From: Raphidiopsis brookii D9
GTDB taxonomy: Bacteria; Cyanobacteriota; Cyanobacteriia; Cyanobacteriales; Nostocaceae
Assembly: GCA_000175855.1 (NCBI GenBank)
Contig: ACYB01000013.1
Span: 1 to 5,516, forward strand
Direction of reading: 5' to 3'
Length of the DNA stretch: 5,516 nt
The notes beneath the pieces are model-generated. The model worked only from the letters and a program-made list of their open reading frames with translations, did not search any database and was not told the DNA's origin. This document shows positions 1-5,516 of this stretch, piece after piece (the stretch's first letter is position 1; the number at the start of each line of letters is the position of its first letter). The translations under genes were made by a program, and so were the position numbers.

Positions 1-49
1 CTTTTTACAGTATCTCTAACCTGCATTATTCATGAAGGCAAAAACAGGA
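1..49. repeat. Left copy of a cluster-flanking inverted repeat (perfect core 16..49, imperfect extension to base 1)
   Basis: Bases 16..49 (ctaacctgcattattcatgaaggcaaaaacagga) are the exact reverse complement of 5350..5383. Outward of the core the copies still align after a 2-nt indel (a tatctc block, then a ttttt block) up to base 1. The copy is therefore probably truncated by the window edge. Similarity stops abruptly on the inner side at base 50. Confidence 0.9.
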
Positions 50-173
50 AAAACAAAACCTAACATTTATACCCAATTTATGGCGGAACTAACTTAATAA
101 GTAAGGCATTTACTGATAAAATCTGAACGGTACTAAAATTAAGTATCGCCAGAAGTCATTCGTCGTAGGGTGC

Positions 174-183: not shown

Positions 184-647
184 ATGCAGTATCAGACCAC
201 TATTGAGCCAATATCTATACAAAAGCAGTTCCCTCTGACTACTGTAGGAGCGCTGGTTATCAATTCTCTCGGACAGGTCTTAATTGTTAAATCTACGAAG
301 TGGCGGGGTGCTTGGGGTGTACCAGGGGAAAAGTAGATTGGGCTGAAACTCTAGAATCTGCACTTTTGAGGGAGTTTCGGGAAGAAGTCGGGTTAGACTT
401 AACTAATGTGCGTTTTGCGTTGCTACAAGAAGCAGTGCTGGACTCACAATTTGTGCGACCTGCCCATTTTATTATGATCAACTATTACGCATTTTCACGT
501 AAAGATACGATTACACCTAATGAAGAAATTGAGGAATGGGCTTGGGTGACTCCCGCACAAGCAAAGGAATATCCTCTCAATAGTTATACCCAAGTATTGA
601 TTGAGGATTTTGTAGAAAATAACATTGGTAGTTTATATAGGAATTAG
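184..647 (+). pseudogene. Nudix hydrolase, frame broken by a 1-nt deficit at the GGGG/AAAA run (325..332); either a pseudogene or a homopolymer sequencing error
   Basis: Frame 1 from ATG 184 reads [50 protein letters not shown] and stops at TAG 334..336. Frame 3 continues [23 protein letters not shown], a perfect Nudix box GX5EX7REUXEEXGU, and runs to TAG 645..647. Adding one G (CCAGGGGGAAAA) would give WGVPGGKVDW and a typical ~154-aa Nudix protein. Confidence 0.8.
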
Positions 648-658
648 GTCTAAGAATA

Positions 659-1378
659 ATGCTGAAAAAAGCACTGGTGACTGGATCATCATCGGGAATT
701 GGTAAGGCGATCGCTCTCGATTTAGCTGCTAAAGGATTTGATGTAGCATTTCATTGTCATAAAAGTGTGGAAGCCTGTAATCAAGCCCGTCAGGAAGGTG
801 CTAAGTACGGCGTAAAAACTGTTGCTTTACAAGCGGATCTGAGAAATCCTGAACAAGCGGAGTTTTTGGTCAAAAATGCTGCTGAGGAATTGGGAGGTCT
901 ATCTGTCGTTGTCAATAATGTGGGTAACTACTTAGACAGACCAACGAGCCAATTATCAGTAGAAGAATGGCATGAAATTATTAATTCTAATCTCCATGGG
1001 ACATTTTATGTCACTAAAGCTGCACTACCTTACCTGAAAGCTGCTAATGGGGGACGTATCATTAATATTGGTTGTGCTGGTGCCCAAAATCTCCTAGCGC
1101 GTTACACTAACACACCTTACTTAATTGCTAAAACTGGCATTATTATCTACTCAAGATCTTTAGCAAAGGAAGTAATTACAGATAAAATTACTGTTAATGT
1201 TGTATCTCCAGGAATAGCAGAAAATTCCTTTGATTTAGAGGAATCTCTACCTGAACTACCTACTAAGCGACCTGCAACTTTACAAGAACTTGTTCATGCA
1301 GCTTGGTTTTTTATTAGTCCAGAATCTGATTATATCACAGGACAGGTATTAGACGTTTCGGGAGGATGGAGGTTGTAA
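659..1378 (+). CDS. Short-chain dehydrogenase/reductase (SDR) family oxidoreductase; candidate pteridine/sepiapterin-type reductase by context only
   Basis: The 239-aa ORF starts 11 nt after the Nudix stop. It has the N-terminal TGSSSGIGKAIA dinucleotide-binding motif, NNVG, YLIAK (YxxxK, 1118..1132), VNVVSPG and a C-terminal ITGQVLDVSGG. The usual catalytic Ser region reads NIGCAGA. Confidence 0.9.
   Translation: MLKKALVTGSSSGIGKAIALDLAAKGFDVAFHCHKSVEACNQARQEGAKYGVKTVALQADLRNPEQAEFLVKNAAEELGGLSVVVNNVGNYLDRPTSQLSVEEWHEIINSNLHGTFYVTKAALPYLKAANGGRIINIGCAGAQNLLARYTNTPYLIAKTGIIIYSRSLAKEVITDKITVNVVSPGIAENSFDLEESLPELPTKRPATLQELVHAAWFFISPESDYITGQVLDVSGGWRL
707..714. repeat. HIP1 octamer GCGATCGC
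   Basis: Exact GCGATCGC inside the SDR gene. Confidence 0.95.
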
Positions 1379-1467
1379 TCAGGTGTGATGATGATTTGGT
1401 TATTTTTGCTCAATGCTTGTGAACAGCTAATAAAAAACTATTGTCTATCAAAAAAAGGATTGGAAAT

Positions 1468-2820
1468 ATGTTGACGATTGAATACATTTATGAAATACAT
1501 GAAAAATATCATGATGCTTTGCAAGTAAAAGTAGAAGAATTTACAATTGGTGATAAAAAATTTAATTTTAATACTGACTCAGCAATTTTAGGAGTGATTA
1601 ATCTTTCTAATGATTCTTGGTACAGAGAAAGCGTATGTTTAAGTTCAGAACAAGCTATTCGCAGAGGATTAGTATTAAAGGCTCAAGGTGCTGATATTAT
1701 AGATATTGGCGCAGAATCTACTTTAGAAAAAGCAGAAAGAGTTGAGGATATTCGCCAAAATTCCCAAATTTTACCAGTGCTAAGATCTCTGAGTCAACAA
1801 GGGGTTTTAACTTCTATTGAAACTTATTATCCTCAAGTGGCTAGAGAATGTTTACAAGCTGGCGCTAATGTGATTAATCTAACGGGTGCTTTTGATAGTG
1901 AGAAAATTTATCAAGCTGTATCTGAATTTGACGCTGGGGTGATTATCTGTTATGTTCAAGGGAAAAATGTCAGAGAAGTTGGTGATTTTGATTTTGGTGA
2001 TGATCCGACAAAATTAATGTATGAATATTTTGCTAATGAAATAGAAATAGCAGCTAAATTTGGGGTGAGAAAAATTTTTGTTGATGCTGGTTTGGGGTTT
2101 TATTATAAGAATCTCCAGGATAGTTCTTTGCGAATTCGTTATCAAATGAAAACTTTTTTGACTACTTTTAGACTGAGAAAATTAGGTTTTCCTGTCTGTC
2201 ATGCTCTCCCTCACGCTTTTGAATATTTTGGGGAAGAAGTAAGAAGTGCAGAATCATTTTTTGCGGTTTTAGCAGCATTAGGAAAAACAGATTTATTCAG
2301 AACTCATGAAGTTCCTAAAGTTAAAGCAGTGTTAGATACACTGTATTCATTTTTAATTATCCAATTATTGGGTAATTTAGGATATAATGATGACTTCAAA
2401 CCGGAATCTGAATCTTTTTTAGAAACTTGGATAATTGGTAAGGAATTCAGATTTGAAGCTGCTCACCAATTACCGAATCATGATGGTAAATGTGCTAGAT
2501 TACATGATCATTCTTGGCGCGGTGTTGTCTATGTTGCAGGGGATAAGCTGATAAACTCAGGTGTTAAACAGGGGATGATTATGGATTATGGTGATATATC
2601 AAAATACATAAAACCCCTGTTGGAAAATTATCTGGATCATTACCATTTAAATGAATCCACAGGTTTAGCTAATCCTACCAGTGAAGCGATCGCTAAATGG
2701 ATTTATGAACAGCTTGAACCCCAAATTCCTGGACTTGTCGCAGTTAGAATTGATGAAACTTGCACCAGTCAATGTATTTACTCAAAAGGAAAAGTTAATT
2801 TTTTTGGGCTTTTAAATTAA
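1468..2820 (+). CDS. Fusion protein: divergent dihydropteroate-synthase-like pterin-binding domain plus QueD/6-pyruvoyl-tetrahydropterin synthase (COG0720) domain
   Basis: The frame is uninterrupted from 1441 to 2820. ATG 1468 is preferred as the start because AAGGA lies 8 nt upstream; the TTG 1441 of the ORF track is possible. Both domains lie in one frame. There is no stop and no in-frame ATG or GTG at the junction (2353..2430), only a TTG at 2368. Confidence 0.88.
   Translation: MLTIEYIYEIHEKYHDALQVKVEEFTIGDKKFNFNTDSAILGVINLSNDSWYRESVCLSSEQAIRRGLVLKAQGADIIDIGAESTLEKAERVEDIRQNSQILPVLRSLSQQGVLTSIETYYPQVARECLQAGANVINLTGAFDSEKIYQAVSEFDAGVIICYVQGKNVREVGDFDFGDDPTKLMYEYFANEIEIAAKFGVRKIFVDAGLGFYYKNLQDSSLRIRYQMKTFLTTFRLRKLGFPVCHALPHAFEYFGEEVRSAESFFAVLAALGKTDLFRTHEVPKVKAVLDTLYSFLIIQLLGNLGYNDDFKPESESFLETWIIGKEFRFEAAHQLPNHDGKCARLHDHSWRGVVYVAGDKLINSGVKQGMIMDYGDISKYIKPLLENYLDHYHLNESTGLANPTSEAIAKWIYEQLEPQIPGLVAVRIDETCTSQCIYSKGKVNFFGLLN
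1579..2352 (+). other. DHPS-like (pterin-binding) domain with altered substrate loops
   Basis: Blocks are collinear with E. coli FolP as I remember it. ILGVINLSNDSW matches VMGILNVTPDSF. GADIIDIGAESTLEKA matches GATIIDVGGESTRPGA. TSIETY matches SVDTS. VINLTG matches IINDI. FVDAGLGFYYKNL matches LLDPGFGFGKNL. DLFRTHEV matches HIIRVHDV. The GMSRKS block is replaced by CHALPHA. Confidence 0.8.
2431..2790 (+). other. QueD / PTPS (6-carboxy- or 6-pyruvoyl-tetrahydropterin synthase) domain
   Basis: FRFEAAHQLPNHDGKCARLHDHSW, LDHYHLNE, NPTSEAIAKWIYEQLEP and DETCTSQCIY closely parallel E. coli QueD (FTFEAAHRLP..GHKCGRLHGHSF, LDHHYLND, NPTSEVLAKWIWDQVKP, KETCTAGCIY; from memory). The catalytic Cys and the three His zinc ligands are present. 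Confidence 0.88.
2686..2693. repeat. HIP1 octamer GCGATCGC
   Basis: Exact GCGATCGC inside the QueD-like domain. Confidence 0.95.
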
Positions 2821-2830
2821 CATAAACAGC

Positions 2831-3355
2831 TTATAAATTGATAGACAAACTCACATCAGAACAGTCTAATTTTTGCAGGAGTTGTGAAATAGGTTCTCTA
2901 GAAAACGGTTCTATCCAATCTGGAGCAATTTCTGCTAATGGAACTAAAACAAAGGCTCTCTGGGTCATTCGAGGATGGGGAATTTGTAAATCTGGTGTTT
3001 CTAAAATCAAGTTATCAAATAATAGTACATCTAAATCTAGGGTTCTAGGTCCCCAACGTTCTTGACGAACTCGACCAAATTCTTGTTCAATATTGAGCAG
3101 AGTTTCTAGCAATTTATAGGGACTAAGTTGCACTTCTAAAATAGCAGCACCGTTTAAATAATCTGGTTGTGATGGTCCGCCTACGGGAGCGGTTCTGTAC
3201 CAACTAGATTGGGCTTTTATGGTAATACCTGGAGTTTTTTCCAGAGTTTTAATTGCACCTTCTAAAATGGCTAAAGATTCCCCTATATTGCTACCAAGAG
3301 CGATCGCACTTAATGAAGGTTTTATCGTTGTTCTCAGGTCAGATATATCAATCAT
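2831..3355 (-). CDS. folK: 2-amino-4-hydroxy-6-hydroxymethyldihydropteridine pyrophosphokinase (HPPK)
   Basis: The 174-aa ORF contains AIALGSNIG, SSWYRTAPVG, QPDYLNGA, GRVRQERWGPRTLDLDVLLF, IPHPRM and RAFVLVPLAEIAP. All are collinear with the hallmark HPPK blocks of E. coli FolK. Confidence 0.93.
   Translation of the reverse strand: MIDISDLRTTIKPSLSAIALGSNIGESLAILEGAIKTLEKTPGITIKAQSSWYRTAPVGGPSQPDYLNGAAILEVQLSPYKLLETLLNIEQEFGRVRQERWGPRTLDLDVLLFDNLILETPDLQIPHPRMTQRAFVLVPLAEIAPDWIEPFSREPISQLLQKLDCSDVSLSINL
3300..3307. repeat. HIP1 octamer GCGATCGC
   Basis: Exact GCGATCGC inside folK. Confidence 0.95.
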
Positions 3356-3520
3356 AAATTTGTAGATGGTAGATGTCAGGAAATTATTAACATAATAATA
3401 ACATATTATCAGATATTTTCACAAAATTGCTTGATCTAAAAAACTGAATTTAGAGTATCATATAACTGATAACTACTGATTTAATTAACCAGGTTCATCA
3501 ACACCAAGGAATTTACTATT

Positions 3521-4519
3521 ATGTCTACAATCTCCAACGGCTTTGAAAAAGTATATGTCCATCCTAGTCAATTTCCCAACAAGGTTTATCAAGATTATTT
3601 AGATTGCTTTTCTGTAGGTAAAATAAATCATAAATTTCATTATGACAGTGTTAAACAAAGTCAGAAATGGTTAAAAATTCATGAATATTATTCTCCAGCT
3701 AGAACCAATGATGATTGTATTAATGCCTATGCAGTATGTTTTCAAAAAACTGCGGAATTTCTGGATATTAATACCAATATCCAAGTAATTGGATTAGGTT
3801 GTGGCGGTGGTGCAAAAGATCATCTTTTAGTATCTTATCTCTTCAATACAGAAAGGGAAATCATTTATTATCCTATTGATGTTAGTTTATCTCTGGCTTT
3901 AATTTCCGGTCAAAAAATTAGGGAATCTTATCCTCAAGTCTCTATACAGCCAATTGTTTGTGATTTACCTTGTGCTGATGATTTAATATTCCATCTTCAT
4001 GATCAAGGAGAAGGACACAGAAAGATCATCACATTTTTTGGGATGATTCCTAATTTTACTCCTGATGAAATATTGCCTATTTTAAGTAATTTTCTCCAAC
4101 CAGGAGATATTTTACTCATGAGTGCAAACTTAGCACCAGGAGACGATTATCTAACAGGAATTAACAAGATTTTGCCACAGTATGATAATGAATTAACCAA
4201 AGATTGGTTAATGACAGTGTTAGTTGACGCAGGGATAAATCGAGACCATGGGACTATTAAATTTTCCCTAAAAGATGATCCAAACCATCAAGAATTAACA
4301 AGAATTAATGCTCAGTTTGAAGTAGAAACTAATATAGATTTGAAATTAGATGATCAAATCATGCACTGGAAAAATGGTGATCAAATTCAATTATTTTTCT
4401 CCTATCGTTATACAACTACTAAACTGCAAAACATTCTCAAACAATATGATATTATCATCCTAGATTATTGGGAAGGTGCAAATCAAGAAGAGGGAGTTTA
4501 TTTTTGTCAAAAGATATAA
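3521..4519 (+). CDS. SAM-dependent methyltransferase of the EgtD / histidine-specific methyltransferase fold (Methyltransf_33-like), substrate unknown
   Basis: The 332-aa ORF has AAGGA 10 nt upstream of its ATG. Its blocks are collinear with mycobacterial EgtD as I remember it. HKFHYDSV..HEYYSPARTN matches KWFYDAVGS..PEYYPTRTE. VIGLGCGGGAKDHLL matches LVELGSGTSEKTRMLL. YYPIDVS..YPQVSIQPIVCDL matches FIPFDVD..YPGIEIDAVCGDF. ITFFGMIPNFTPDE..LQPGDILLMSANL matches VVFLGSTIGNLTPAP..LQPGDSLLLGTDL. Confidence 0.82.
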   Translation: MSTISNGFEKVYVHPSQFPNKVYQDYLDCFSVGKINHKFHYDSVKQSQKWLKIHEYYSPARTNDDCINAYAVCFQKTAEFLDINTNIQVIGLGCGGGAKDHLLVSYLFNTEREIIYYPIDVSLSLALISGQKIRESYPQVSIQPIVCDLPCADDLIFHLHDQGEGHRKIITFFGMIPNFTPDEILPILSNFLQPGDILLMSANLAPGDDYLTGINKILPQYDNELTKDWLMTVLVDAGINRDHGTIKFSLKDDPNHQELTRINAQFEVETNIDLKLDDQIMHWKNGDQIQLFFSYRYTTTKLQNILKQYDIIILDYWEGANQEEGVYFCQKI

Positions 4520-4626
4520 AACAAAAACATCTCCTTGTAGGTAGGGTTTGCAAAAATAAGCCAAGGACATTAGAGGATGTTTGAAAAGTCTAATTTGGGC
4601 GATTAGAAATCACATCTACACAGACA

Positions 4627-4646
4627 AAACCTGCCTACGCAGGTTT
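4627..4646. terminator. Perfect 8-bp stem / 4-nt loop hairpin between the convergent methyltransferase and folB genes; weak bidirectional terminator candidate or dispersed-repeat hairpin
   Basis: The hairpin is aaacctgc (4627..4634), ctac, gcaggttt (4639..4646). T-rich sequence follows on both strands: tttcaaattcttaattttt on + and ttttgtctg on -. The GC core is only 5 bp, so terminator strength is doubtful. Confidence 0.4.
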
Positions 4647-4685
4647 CAAATTCTTAATTTTTCGTATATTAATTTGTATAAATCT

Positions 4686-4704
4686 GGCGGGCAAGATGCC
4701 CACC
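4686..4704. repeat. GC-rich mini-hairpin ggcgggca-aga-tgcccacc, resembling short dispersed hairpin repeats of Nostocales genomes
   Basis: gggca (4689..4693) pairs with tgccc (4697..4701) across a 3-nt loop. The stem extends by gg/cc with one mismatch. It is a GC island inside AT-rich intergenic DNA. The resemblance to genome-wide repeats is from memory only. Confidence 0.35.
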
Positions 4705-4771
4705 CCACAATATCTAACAGTGGTAAAAATTCATACTTTCCTTCAGCAAGTCAAAAAAATAGACATTTGCT

Positions 4772-5139
4772 TCATAAATTTGATTTGCTTCTAGTCAATT
4801 CAATGCGAATATTACCATCAAAATCAGGAATTGGTGCAGCAGGTTTAATGAGAGTAACTTGTACTTGGGTAGTCAGACTACTTTCTTGAAGAATAGCATC
4901 AGCGATCGCACCTGCCAACCTTTCCAATAAATCAAATTTAGATGTTGTCAGCAAGTTTTGGACTAAACTAATAACACTACGATAATCTACTGTATCTTTA
5001 ATAGCATCAGTCTTTGCAGCTTGAGCAAGATCCACCCATAATTTCAAATCTACCTCAAACCATTGTCCTAATACCTTTTCCTCCGGTAATACCCAACATA
5101 ACCATAACCGCGAATCCCTGTCAAATGAATACAGTCCAT
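4772..5139 (-). pseudogene. folB: Dihydroneopterin aldolase, frame broken by a 1-nt deficit near 5087..5097; either a pseudogene or a homopolymer sequencing error
   Basis: On the minus strand, ATG 5139 reads MDCIHLTGIRGYGYVG and then runs out of frame to TAG (5070..5068). The -1 frame continues (V)LPEEKVLGQWFEVDLKLWVDLAQAAKTDAIKDTVDYRSVISLVQNLLTTSKFDLLERLAGAIADAIL...LIKPAAP...IRIELTR. Together these reproduce the full FolB pattern (GxxGxxxEE..Q.F.VD..DTVDY..ERLA..KP), about 122 aa. One extra G in GTTGGG, or one extra T in TATTA, restores the frame. Confidence 0.8.
4902..4909. repeat. HIP1 octamer GCGATCGC
   Basis: Exact GCGATCGC inside folB. Confidence 0.95.
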
Positions 5140-5169
5140 AAAACTCTGATTATAAATCATCAACTGACC

Positions 5170-5211
5170 ATTTTAGATTTTAAATTAAATAACCCAGACC
5201 AAATCTAAAAT
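5170..5211. repeat. 11-bp perfect inverted repeat with a 20-nt spacer, upstream of folB
   Basis: attttagattt (5170..5180) is the reverse complement of aaatctaaaat (5201..5211). The sequence is AT-only, so the match is partly expected by composition. Confidence 0.5.
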
Positions 5212-5218
5212 TAAATTC

Positions 5219-5239
5219 AGATAAATTAAGAATTTATCT
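5219..5239. promoter_or_regulatory. Perfect 9-3-9 palindrome agataaatt-aag-aatttatct, a candidate dimeric regulator binding site upstream of folB
   Basis: 5219..5227 is the exact reverse complement of 5231..5239. The site lies 80-100 nt upstream of the folB start (5139), in the non-coding stretch between folB and the right inverted repeat. Confidence 0.35.
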
Positions 5240-5349
5240 TTCTATAATGTTTTTACATTCATCTATTACGAATGAAAGCAGCAGAAATTATTCAGCAAGC
5301 CCTATTTAATTTTCCAGTAGTTGCACTTAGTAATGTAAGTTGCTAGTTA

Positions 5350-5399
5350 TCCTGTTTTTGCCTTCATGAATAATGCAGGTTAGTGAGATAGGCAAAAAT
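5350..5399. repeat. Right copy of the cluster-flanking inverted repeat (perfect core 5350..5383, imperfect outward extension)
   Basis: 5350..5383 is the exact reverse complement of 16..49. gagata (5385..5390) and aaaaa (5394..5398) continue the alignment with left bases 11..16 and 2..6. The unit also self-pairs: tttttgcc (5355..5362) with ggcaaaaa (5391..5398). Confidence 0.9.
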
Positions 5400-5516
5400 A
5401 TTTCCTAGTGTCTGTAACCACTGATTAAAGCAGAATTAAATCTAGTCAATATACACACGATGTAGACTTTACAGTTGTAGTTTAGTCTTTCCAGTCTTTT
5501 ATATAAACTTGACAAG

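Follow-up and report, generated by a model that had tools for sequence, protein, structure and literature searches.

A single open reading frame (ORF) in the draft genome of Raphidiopsis brookii D9 appears to join a protein resembling dihydropteroate synthase (DHPS) to QueD, which raises the question of whether this cyanobacterium encodes a new bifunctional protein or whether two neighbouring genes have been merged in the deposited sequence. The window that we analysed, i.e. the whole stretch of DNA under study, is an entire 5516-bp contig of this genome (454/GS20). In the sequence as given, the ORF runs uninterrupted from 1441/1468 to 2820, and both domains are present in it far beyond chance, with Pfam matches to Pterin_bind (aa 42-224, E = 1.5e-29) and PTPS (aa 323-439, E = 1.3e-30). 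The sequence-only reading of this locus had described one ORF whose junction contains neither a stop codon nor an ATG or GTG in frame, and the fused frame does have this structure; the motifs GAESTLEKA (1708..1734) and GKCARLHDHSW (2485..2517), to which it had drawn attention, can likewise be read directly in the sequence.

An exact match of the 450-aa fused ORF is present in nr as EFA73939.1 ('Dihydropteroate synthase [Raphidiopsis brookii D9]'), and entries EFA73938, EFA73940 and EFA73941 represent the SDR, FolK and methyltransferase of the same contig. EFA73939.1 shares a 90%-identity cluster with both of the unrelated families (DHPS-like and QueD); it is the only listed member of this cluster that spans the two, and it probably bridges them there. 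We consider it likely, with a probability of roughly 0.8, that the 450-aa 'fusion' arose as an artefact of assembly, in which a DHPS-like gene and queD have been joined by single-base homopolymer errors in a 454 draft. If so, the error has already been propagated into the databases via EFA73939.1, and the locus offers not a new bifunctional protein but a textbook example of how a chimeric ORF arises from homopolymer errors.

Distribution of the two domains and private indels in the D9 contig

The sequence-only reading had called for a survey of genomes for the same fusion, and this search gave a uniform picture. The best 120 database homologues are all stand-alone proteins of approximately 295 aa (range 256-309 aa), none with both domains, and of the top 150 matches from 1.84e9 representative proteins not one covers both halves. 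No fused genes were detected in the 80 genome loci examined, the two being separate in every syntenic locus, and among the 46 cyanobacterial loci no more than 14 have QueD adjoining the DHPS-like gene.

Five assemblies of the conspecific or near-conspecific Cylindrospermopsis raciborskii match the window with 99.3-99.5% identity and 7-10 substitutions over 247..5516, and a number of Dolichospermum/Anabaena genomes likewise resemble it closely. In both groups a 295-aa DHPS-like gene ends with a TAA codon and is followed by a 30-nt spacer carrying AGGA and by a separate queD (141/142 aa); in the five C. raciborskii assemblies the Pterin_bind gene encodes 295/304 aa. Five 1-nt indels (at positions 325, 2350, 2398, 2799 and 5088) set the window apart, all of them located in homopolymers and all private to it, and the alternative state is common to up to seven other sequences, including the Dolichospermum outgroups (approximately 95% identity). 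The private changes thus comprise about five indels, all in coding sequence, versus about four to five substitutions, a balance that is not what purifying selection leaves.

The continuity of the fused ORF hinges on two of these indels. A T5 homopolymer (2350..2354, + strand) replaces the T4 found in 8/8 comparison sequences, the extra T putting the TAA out of frame, and an A3 homopolymer (2398..2400, + strand) replaces the A4 of all relatives, the base missing three codons into queD. The +1 T and the -1 A cancel each other, so that the stop, spacer and start are read through; loss of the A restores the upstream frame and completes the apparent fusion. These T5 and A3 states were found in no other genome compared, and a junction allowing T4/T5 and A3/A4 had no match in two scans of JGI metagenome contigs. 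What looks like a coding linker is a shifted-frame reading of the TAA, the native intergenic spacer (2357..2386, + strand) with its Shine-Dalgarno-like AGGA (2379-2382), and the start ATGATG (2387-2392); AGGA and ATGATG, which both lie out of frame here, are the native ribosome-binding site and start of queD in every relative, and in the window ATGATG opens an ORF of 11 codons. The spacer was delimited by alignment to loci L004-L008, where Pterin_bind and PTPS reside in separate genes with 30 nt between them. Removal of one T brings back the DHPS-like C-terminus (..LYSF*) with the native TAA at 2354-2356, and a three-base correction yields proteins of exactly the family lengths.

The remaining three of the five private indels disrupt the genes for NUDIX and FolB and the C-terminus of queD. 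The NUDIX hydrolase gene (184..647, + strand), intact in relatives (139-154 aa), is split into two ORFs by the loss of one G from a run at 325-328 (G5 in relatives), while folB (dihydroneopterin aldolase; 4772..5139, - strand), also intact in relatives (122-129 aa), is frameshifted by the loss of one base at 5088, in a run of three bases in relatives. At 2799..2805 (+ strand) the window has a T7 homopolymer where all relatives have T6, so that QueD ends with NFFGLLN* instead of NFLGF*. Technology-driven homopolymer errors do occur at this locus, because another assembly of it (L005, on a 3.48-Mb contig) has private homopolymer indels of its own that split the same genes.

The true locus would therefore be organized as in the relatives, with a 295-aa DHPS-like gene ending with TAA, the AGGA-containing spacer, and a 142-aa queD starting from ATGATG. 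Two miscalls located 48 nt apart would bracket the stop, spacer and start and, by cancelling each other, would expose a shifted frame that is by chance open, making two genes look like one ORF; the three other miscalls within the 5.5 kb would account for the broken NUDIX and folB genes and the altered end of queD. The exact compensation of the two junction indels is a coincidence under such an error model, which speaks against an artefact; it is also a selection effect, because the compensation is the reason why the ORF was noticed.

The D9 genome was sequenced by 454/GS20 at 27x, with little correction by Sanger reads (only 188 small-insert, 491 fosmid and 253 finishing reads), and the authors of this genome mentioned the intrinsic errors of 454 (PMC2821919). 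Five errors in 5.5 kb would be a high number for 27x 454 data, except if coverage was low on this short contig with its flanking repeats. Contigs of D9 terminate at repeats (PMC2821919), and an end-of-contig repeat element (2..67, no strand assigned) recurs in inverted orientation at 5332-5397, with 80% complementarity; the repeat copy at 5350-5384 is also kept in C. raciborskii.

The same five indels might be real D9 mutations in a decaying pterin cluster, in which case the fused ORF would be an accidental by-product of two slippages. Other traits are already missing from D9, whose genome is the smallest of its group (PMC2821919), so pseudogenization in such a reduced genome is not implausible. 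The NUDIX and folB genes are disrupted too, and the window-private coding substitutions (Asp to Tyr at 1483 and Pro to Arg at 4242) are both non-synonymous, which fits relaxed selection, two events being too few to weigh. However, a divergence of about 0.15% from C. raciborskii leaves little time for five independent frameshifts, every change is a +/-1 event in a homopolymer (the signature of pyrosequencing), FolK is still 100% identical to the protein of C. raciborskii, and the window contains none of the larger deletions that usually dominate pseudogene decay. We regard real mutations as an unlikely source of the indels, which appear to be errors.

Far less probable still is a genuine functional D9 fusion, i.e. 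a bifunctional DHPS-like/QueD protein with channelling of a pterin intermediate, which the sequence-only reading had proposed. In its favour, the ORF is open with both domains complete in the deposited sequence, and consecutive folate enzymes are fused elsewhere: FolB-FolK-FolP in fungi, HPPK-DHPS in plants and apicomplexans, and DHPS-reductase in H. pylori (PMC4224340, PMC1971073; PDB matches for the first two types). Those fusions are conserved across lineages, whereas the DHPS-like/QueD ORF is private to a single deposited 454 contig, depends on two homopolymer differences and has no counterpart among the best representative proteins searched. Moreover, its 'linker' is an out-of-frame spacer retaining a native ribosome-binding site and start, the NUDIX and folB genes are frameshifted on the same contig, and QueD is no constant neighbour of the DHPS-like gene. 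Judged by sequence comparison, the fusion is not a real feature of the locus, because the junction indels are private and no protein matches both halves. Two separate genes, an outcome that the proposal itself had recognized as fatal, are what the comparative evidence indicates.

The DHPS-like paralogue and QueD

With the two genes separated, the locus exposes a highly conserved DHPS paralogue that is probably mis-annotated in hundreds of genomes and whose neighbourhood, with genes for a reductase and a methyltransferase, is conserved as well. The gene (1468..2356, + strand; 295 aa in relatives; Pfam Pterin_bind, 1.5e-29) belongs to a real, widespread and strongly conserved family, whose members have 295-304 aa and a C-terminus of the form ..LDTLxxF*. 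The family is present in at least 584 species genomes, and the loci studied here are the best 80 of 584 relatives (46 cyanobacterial and 34 other). Its proteins, annotated everywhere as 'dihydropteroate synthase', share 63-68% identity between phyla. A TIM-barrel fold is predicted unambiguously from the sequence; E. coli FolP (PDB 1AJ0), which has the same Pterin_bind fold, is matched with an hhalign probability of 99.4% at 27% identity, and PDB matches to FolP and Sul1-3 (PDB 7S2L) reach down to 2e-21.

A profile alignment to E. coli FolP revealed a consistent pattern of retained and altered residues. Equivalents of Asn22, Asn115, Asp185, Arg255 and His257 are kept and invariant in the family, so the pterin pocket is preserved with the one exception of Asp96, replaced by Glu (SIETY). 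Loop 2, in contrast, reads GAESTL(E/x)xA (GAESTLEKA in the window) versus GGESTRPG in FolP, Arg63 and Pro64 being changed to Leu and Glu, respectively. The position of the SRK motif reads PVCHALPH, with neither Lys nor Arg (phmmer against Sul3; hhalign against E. coli), and an invariant GFPVCHALPHAFE block stands in place of this loop-7 motif and its Lys221. In canonical DHPS these loop-2 and loop-7 residues serve to handle diphosphate and pABA. The DHPS-like protein also has an N-terminal extension of approximately 35 aa relative to FolP. The earlier residue-level observations, namely that pterin-pocket blocks are kept while the loop-2 and SRK motifs have been lost, are thus borne out. It is plausible that the DHPS-like protein is not an ordinary pABA-using DHPS, because the pterin pocket is kept and the canonical loop-2 and SRK residues are gone. 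In place of SRK, the invariant Cys-His-x3-His block may provide a new site for an acceptor or a metal.

Mycobacterial FolP2 (Rv1207; PDB 2VP8) offers a precedent, being a paralogue with the DHPS fold and a DHPS annotation that nevertheless serves another role; it does not complement folP and clusters with non-folate genes (PMC1971073). It is matched by the DHPS-like protein only distantly (E = 7e-11), more weakly than true DHPSs are, and its neighbours are cell-wall genes, in contrast to the SDR, FolK and methyltransferase genes found here. We found nothing specific in the literature on a characterized DHPS-like paralogue of this kind or on a cyanobacterial pterin cluster of such composition.

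The queD gene (PTPS-I type, CxxxHDH) extends over 2387..2815 (+ strand), from the native ATG at 2387 to a native TAA that, after correction, lies at about 2813-2815; the corrected translation (MMTSKPE...NFLGF*) has the same length as its relatives. Both the fused ORF (89.4 bits) and an intact orthologue (91.9 bits) exceed the cut-off of the QueD model TIGR03367 (89.25). The PTPS-I signature is CxxxHGH (PMC5041015); at this place C(A/T)RLHDH is found in the proteins of the window and C. raciborskii, which share with QueD/PTPS-I the CxxxH-x-H spacing, both His residues of the motif and the three His zinc ligands, with Gly changed to Asp. Orthologues outside Cylindrospermopsis/Raphidiopsis read CARLHGH. 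The LHDH that the sequence-only reading had noted is therefore real in the sequence, but it is a G-to-D change specific to these two genera and not a trait of the family; a new PTPS subtype was rejected on the same ground, since other genera have LHGH in the orthologues encoded in this neighbourhood. Assignment to PTPS-III (the FolB bypass) was also rejected: the residue after Cys is Ala or Thr, the Glu of ExxHGH being absent, and folB is present. Without a Glu following the Cys, D9 QueD is neither a PTPS-III nor a PTPS-I/III folB-bypass enzyme. The queD product is most probably an ordinary 6-carboxytetrahydropterin synthase of the PTPS-I type.

Gene neighbourhood and a putative pterin pathway

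An SDR reductase gene of TmpR type (EFA73938.1; 659..1378, + strand) immediately precedes the DHPS-like gene, and this arrangement is found in 46/46 cyanobacterial loci. The SDR passes the NCBIfam TmpR model (NF012208; 372.5 bits vs a cut-off of 325), which we take to be derived from Tm8-3. The latter, obtained by functional metagenomics, is an SDR that resembles 3-oxoacyl-ACP reductase and reduces dihydrofolate (PMC3675766). On the origin of the TmpR name the literature yielded nothing specific save this precedent. On the other side lie folK (HPPK; EFA73940.1; 2831..3355, - strand; TIGR01498, 151.8 bits vs a cut-off of 54.1) and a gene for an EgtD/EasF-like methyltransferase (EFA73941.1; 3521..4519, + strand; Pfam PF10017, Methyltransf_33, 5.3e-22). 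The methyltransferase scores 68.1 bits with the EgtD model TIGR03438, below its cut-off of 290.9, so its membership in Methyltransf_33 holds at the family level only. A methyltransferase gene is located near the DHPS-like gene in 33/46 cyanobacterial and 16/34 other loci, which makes it the most often conserved neighbour across phyla. Genes linked in cyanobacteria also include those for FolK, FolB, NUDIX, a MurL-like PP-loop enzyme and a TrxR-like flavoprotein.

Independently of the fusion question, the 295-aa protein could be a housekeeping DHPS with divergent loops, and the cluster (a FolQ-like NUDIX, the TmpR-type SDR as a DHFR substitute, FolP, FolK and FolB) an ordinary folate operon. Its universal annotation agrees with this, as does its location beside folK, folB, a NUDIX gene and a reductase named dihydropteridine/dihydrofolate reductase, and the active enzyme Sul3 also does without the loop-2 Arg (GAASSNPD). 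On the other hand, Sul3 keeps the Lys/Arg that is missing at the SRK position, and the protein scores only 115.3 bits with the DHPS equivalog model TIGR01496 (cut-off 162.6). The family is patchy in cyanobacteria, which are folate prototrophs (PMC1971073): among the best 80 of 584 relatives, Nostoc, Synechococcus, Prochlorococcus, Microcystis and Synechocystis labels occur in 0/46 cyanobacterial loci. Verrucomicrobia carry the DHPS-like gene beside a methyltransferase gene without folK, folB or SDR, and Trichodesmium contains tandem duplicated SDR and DHPS-like pairs. By our own expectation, the identity between phyla also seems unusually high for a housekeeping FolP. When 88 loci were searched for a canonical folP with E. 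coli FolP as the tblastn query, the matches were paralogue copies only. Overall, a housekeeping role appears rather improbable.

We tentatively favour another possibility, to which we would give slightly less than even odds: that the stand-alone DHPS-like protein, the SDR and the EgtD-like methyltransferase form an uncharacterized pterin pathway of cyanobacteria and Verrucomicrobia. The FolP paralogue would most likely still bind 6-hydroxymethyl-dihydropterin diphosphate (HMDHP-PP) supplied by the adjacent FolB and FolK, and would pass its pterin-6-ylmethyl group on, the acceptor being a compound different from pABA. The product would then be reduced by the TmpR-type SDR, whose gene always adjoins that of the paralogue in cyanobacteria, and probably methylated by the methyltransferase. 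The outcome would be a new pterin conjugate, both reduced and methylated, which may be a cofactor or metabolite. Should a non-pABA acceptor be confirmed, this would define a new branch of pterin metabolism and would bear on the annotation of sulfonamide targets and of the folate pathway in cyanobacteria. What looked like an insertion within the DHPS-like gene at two loci (L024 and L027) was rejected, as it corresponds only to an offset of the reported match.

Junction of the deposited open reading frame

In the window, a single open reading frame beginning at TTG 1441 or ATG 1468 stays open until a stop codon at 2818-2820; from ATG 1468 it encodes 450 aa, deposited as the 450-aa protein EFA73939.1 under the public name 'Dihydropteroate synthase [Raphidiopsis brookii D9]' on a 5516-bp contig that the window covers in full. 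Pfam detects two domains, Pterin_bind (aa 42-224, E 1.5e-29) and PTPS (aa 323-439, E 1.3e-30), so the uninterrupted frame with both domains described by the sequence-only reading is indeed present, and the positions it gave for GAESTLEKA (1708..1734) and GKCARLHDHSW (2485..2517) are exact on direct reading. The NCBIfam model for dihydropteroate synthase (DHPS), TIGR01496, scores 115.3 bits, below its cut-off of 162.6, and QueD TIGR03367 89.4 bits, barely above its cut-off of 89.25.

The proposal built on this frame, a covalent DHPS-like/QueD fusion enzyme, finds no counterpart among the relatives. In a search of 5.8 billion proteins, the best 120 matches were 256-309 aa long (nearly all 295-297) and spanned just 56-66% of the query, i.e. 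the DHPS-like part, at 64-97% identity. The closest of them, from Dolichospermum (P0001, 97%), lies in a locus with the gene order of the window: NUDIX (154 aa), SDR (239), Pterin_bind (295), PTPS (141), HPPK (174, minus strand), Methyltransf_33 (332) and FolB (129, minus strand). When 1.84 billion representative proteins were searched by HMMER with the 450-aa query, none of the best 150 of 13,754 matches spanned both halves, each covering either residues 1-297 or 312-445. A survey of genomes for the same fusion was equally negative, with no fused gene in the 80 loci retrieved for the DHPS-like family (the best 80 of at least 584), and PTPS adjoins the DHPS-like gene in just 14 of the 46 cyanobacterial loci among these.

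Five assemblies (four from GenBank, one from Logan) encode a FolK identical to that of the window and match positions 247..5516 at 99.3-99.5% identity; NCBI labels the proteins of the FolK and QueD cluster Cylindrospermopsis raciborskii. Pterin_bind and PTPS are separate genes in all five, PTPS with 141-142 aa and Pterin_bind with 295 or 304 aa in four, being cut in the fifth (L005) by that assembly's own indels. The comparative evidence is thus of two separate genes, the arrangement that the sequence-only reading had itself set against its proposal. An insertion of ~0.2-0.4 kb, possibly a small mobile repeat, interrupts the DHPS-like/queD spacer of several Dolichospermum and Anabaena genomes (L002, 1366-1656; L003; L011, L012, L013), further showing that these are two distinct cistrons.

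Base-by-base comparison revealed how the frame was joined. The relatives read TAT TCA TTT TAA, then a 30-nt spacer with AGGA, then ATG ATG ACT TCA AAA CCG. The window has five T instead of four at 2350-2354, which puts the TAA out of frame, and three A instead of four at 2398-2400, so that the original frame returns three codons into queD. Across the stop, spacer and start, which lie between these sites, translation follows a shifted frame that is open by chance. The presumed ~25-aa linker is this shifted-frame reading. The native AGGA (2379-2382) and ATG (2387) are unharmed, the latter now beginning an 11-codon ORF. Reverting the changes at 2350, 2398 and 2799 (T7 versus T6, altering the QueD C-terminus) yields a 295-aa protein ending in LYSF and a 142-aa QueD ending in NFLGF, exactly the family lengths.

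Sequencing error, mutation or functional fusion

Two further changes of the same type affect the flanking genes: four G versus five at 325, which splits the NUDIX gene, and a two-base versus three-base run at 5088, which shifts the folB frame. All five single-base homopolymer indels (325, 2350, 2398, 2799, 5088) are private to the window; the other state is common to as many as seven further sequences, among them Dolichospermum and Anabaena outgroups ~95% identical (L001 and L008 do not span every site). In total, the private changes comprise about five homopolymer indels, all five within coding sequence, and 4-5 substitutions, a pattern that points to base-calling error or complete loss of selection, and not to an evolved fusion.

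The D9 genome was sequenced with the 454/GS20 system at 27x, with just 188 small-insert Sanger reads, 491 fosmid reads and 253 finishing reads added, the Sanger reads serving to fix '454/Roche technology intrinsic errors' (PMC2821919), and the window (35% G+C) contains 138 homopolymer runs of at least 4 bases. Moreover, L005 (GCA_002321935.1, a 3.48-Mb contig) carries its own private homopolymer insertions at 5290-7893, leaving its methyltransferase and DHPS-like genes in fragments; such artefacts therefore arise readily at this locus, and assembly errors have struck it more than once. Judged from these comparisons, the fused frame is most probably a sequencing artefact (probability about 0.8). 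That the indels are real pseudogenising mutations of D9 is a reading we consider quite unlikely, and a functional DHPS-like/QueD fusion, which has the open frame itself in its favour and the relatives against it, is highly improbable. Searches for D9 reads or for a second assembly of D9 found none. The fusion is literally in the deposited sequence, yet it does not reflect a true biological feature.

The 90%-identity protein cluster of P0001 holds both 295-aa DHPS-like and 141-aa QueD proteins, which belong to unrelated families. No listed member other than the chimeric EFA73939.1 extends across both, so it probably bridges them, and the mixed cluster suggests that the error has passed into clustered databases, a point of caution for annotation.

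The DHPS-like paralogue and its gene neighbourhood

Apart from the fusion claim, the DHPS-like family is worth keeping, since it may represent a branch of pterin metabolism not yet characterised. Twelve of its proteins, from cyanobacteria and Verrucomicrobia (64-89% identity to P0001), share the invariant blocks GV(I/V)NLSxDS, G(A/S)E, S(I/V)ETY, NLTG, D(A/P)GLGF, FRLRxLGFPxC, LPH(A/G)FE and LGKTDLxRTHEVP. Profile alignment to E. coli FolP (PDB 1AJ0; 99.4% probability) showed that Asn22, Asn115, Asp185, Arg255 and His257 are retained, Asp96 is replaced by Glu, and Arg63, Pro64 and Gly65 by Leu, Glu and Lys, with no Lys or Arg at the SRK (Lys221) position; the latter was likewise absent in a phmmer alignment to Sul3. 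The earlier residue-level account of this domain was thus essentially right. Sul3 is an active DHPS in which the loop-2 Arg is missing and SRK is kept, whereas the DHPS-like protein lacks both, and the missing lysine is the strongest sign of an altered reaction. The nearest precedent is mycobacterial FolP2 (PDB 2VP8), a DHPS paralogue that did not complement folP (PMC1971073); a literature search found no paper on the present paralogue or its gene cluster.

Relatives occur in at least 584 genomes (one per species scanned). The best 80 comprise 46 cyanobacteria (Dolichospermum/Anabaena, Scytonema, Brasilonema, Rivularia, Trichodesmium, Okeania, Moorena, Symploca, Lyngbya PCC 8106 and Prochloron among them) and otherwise mostly Verrucomicrobia (62-68% identity), and none of the 46 is labelled Nostoc, Synechococcus, Prochlorococcus, Microcystis or Synechocystis. 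Taking into account the lack of these labels among the 46, the folate prototrophy of cyanobacteria (PMC1971073), the SRK loss and the DHPS score below cut-off, the evidence argues for an accessory paralogue; that the protein is just the housekeeping FolP seems rather unlikely.

Neighbour counts (46 cyanobacterial and 34 other loci) are lower bounds, many contigs being short: SDR, mostly directly upstream (46/46 and 1/34), FolK (36 and 0), Methyltransf_33 (33 and 16), NUDIX (31 and 0), FolB (21 and 0), PP-loop protein (18 and 0), PTPS (14 and 0) and a thioredoxin-reductase-like flavoprotein (13 and 1). The 464-aa PP-loop protein (SGGKES, CNCPKC motif; L052, 6486-7880, and 17 other cyanobacterial loci) distantly resembles the MurL epimerase (78.7 bits, cut-off 700), and the flavoprotein is found at L030 4150-5124 and 13 other loci; their recurrence suggests a larger biosynthetic cluster. 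Trichodesmium erythraeum IMS101 (L026, 4163-7894) has a tandem duplication of the SDR/DHPS-like pair, with DHPS-like proteins of 301 aa and 297 aa in that order, the former being the more divergent (GTESTVKTA; FPVFNQIPTALE). A second, divergent copy is also present in Lyngbya PCC 8106 (L035, 206-1006).

In the pathway we consider most likely, FolB and FolK would provide 6-hydroxymethyl-7,8-dihydropterin diphosphate, which the DHPS-like TIM barrel would hold in its conserved pterin pocket; the nucleophile receiving the pterin-6-ylmethyl group would not be pABA, and the Cys-His-x3-His block in place of SRK may hold this acceptor or a metal. The dihydropterin product would then be reduced by the TmpR-type SDR, presumably co-transcribed, and the EgtD-like enzyme would methylate that product or its acceptor. 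For QueD, a plain role in the queuosine pathway is probable, its gene lying close to others whose enzymes also use dihydroneopterin triphosphate.

Other genes of the window

The QueD motif has the CxxxH-x-H spacing of PTPS-I (CxxxHGH type), as opposed to PTPS-II (CxxxxxHGH) and PTPS-III (ExxHGH) (PMC5041015). In this zinc motif, every Cylindrospermopsis and Raphidiopsis sequence (including L004-L008) has HDH (2503-2511) and no other does, HGH being otherwise universal; orthologues from Dolichospermum, Scytonema, Trichodesmium, Lyngbya and others have CARLHGH. The unusual LHDH pointed out earlier is therefore a real, lineage-specific Gly-to-Asp change in an otherwise ordinary QueD.

The NUDIX gene, broken into ORFs 184..336 and 300..647 at the G-run 325-328 (one G short), is intact in relatives (139-154 aa), and its split probably has the same cause as the fusion. 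A 45-nt in-frame stretch in its N-terminus (202-246, 15 codons), also found in Dolichospermum/Anabaena and missing from all five C. raciborskii assemblies, is a true strain or lineage difference. The SDR (659..1378) passes the 'TmpR dihydropteridine/dihydrofolate reductase' model (372.5 bits, cut-off 325), and folK occupies 2831..3355 (minus strand). The truncated-looking folB (minus strand; 4772..5047 as listed, 4772-5139 with the frameshift) has lost a base from a three-base run, and its intact orthologue scores 93.5 bits against the equivalog cut-off of 72.15.

The Methyltransf_33 (EgtD/EasF-like) gene at 3521..4519 is publicly named 'L-histidine N(alpha)-methyltransferase', probably an over-annotation, as its EgtD score is 68 bits (cut-off 290.9) and no egtB lies nearby. 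At 3536 it carries one copy of the 12-nt tandem unit AACGGCTTTGAA (coding NGFE), which varies in frame, with two copies in C. raciborskii and Anabaena sp. 54 and one in Dolichospermum.

An inverted repeat of 66 nt (80% complementary) lies at both contig ends (2-67 and 5332-5397). D9 contigs break at repeats (PMC2821919), and the 454 assembly probably stopped here because the element is short and dispersed. The copy at 5332-5397 is kept in C. raciborskii and that at 2-67 has no counterpart at its position; alternatively, D9 could have undergone a rearrangement upstream of NUDIX.
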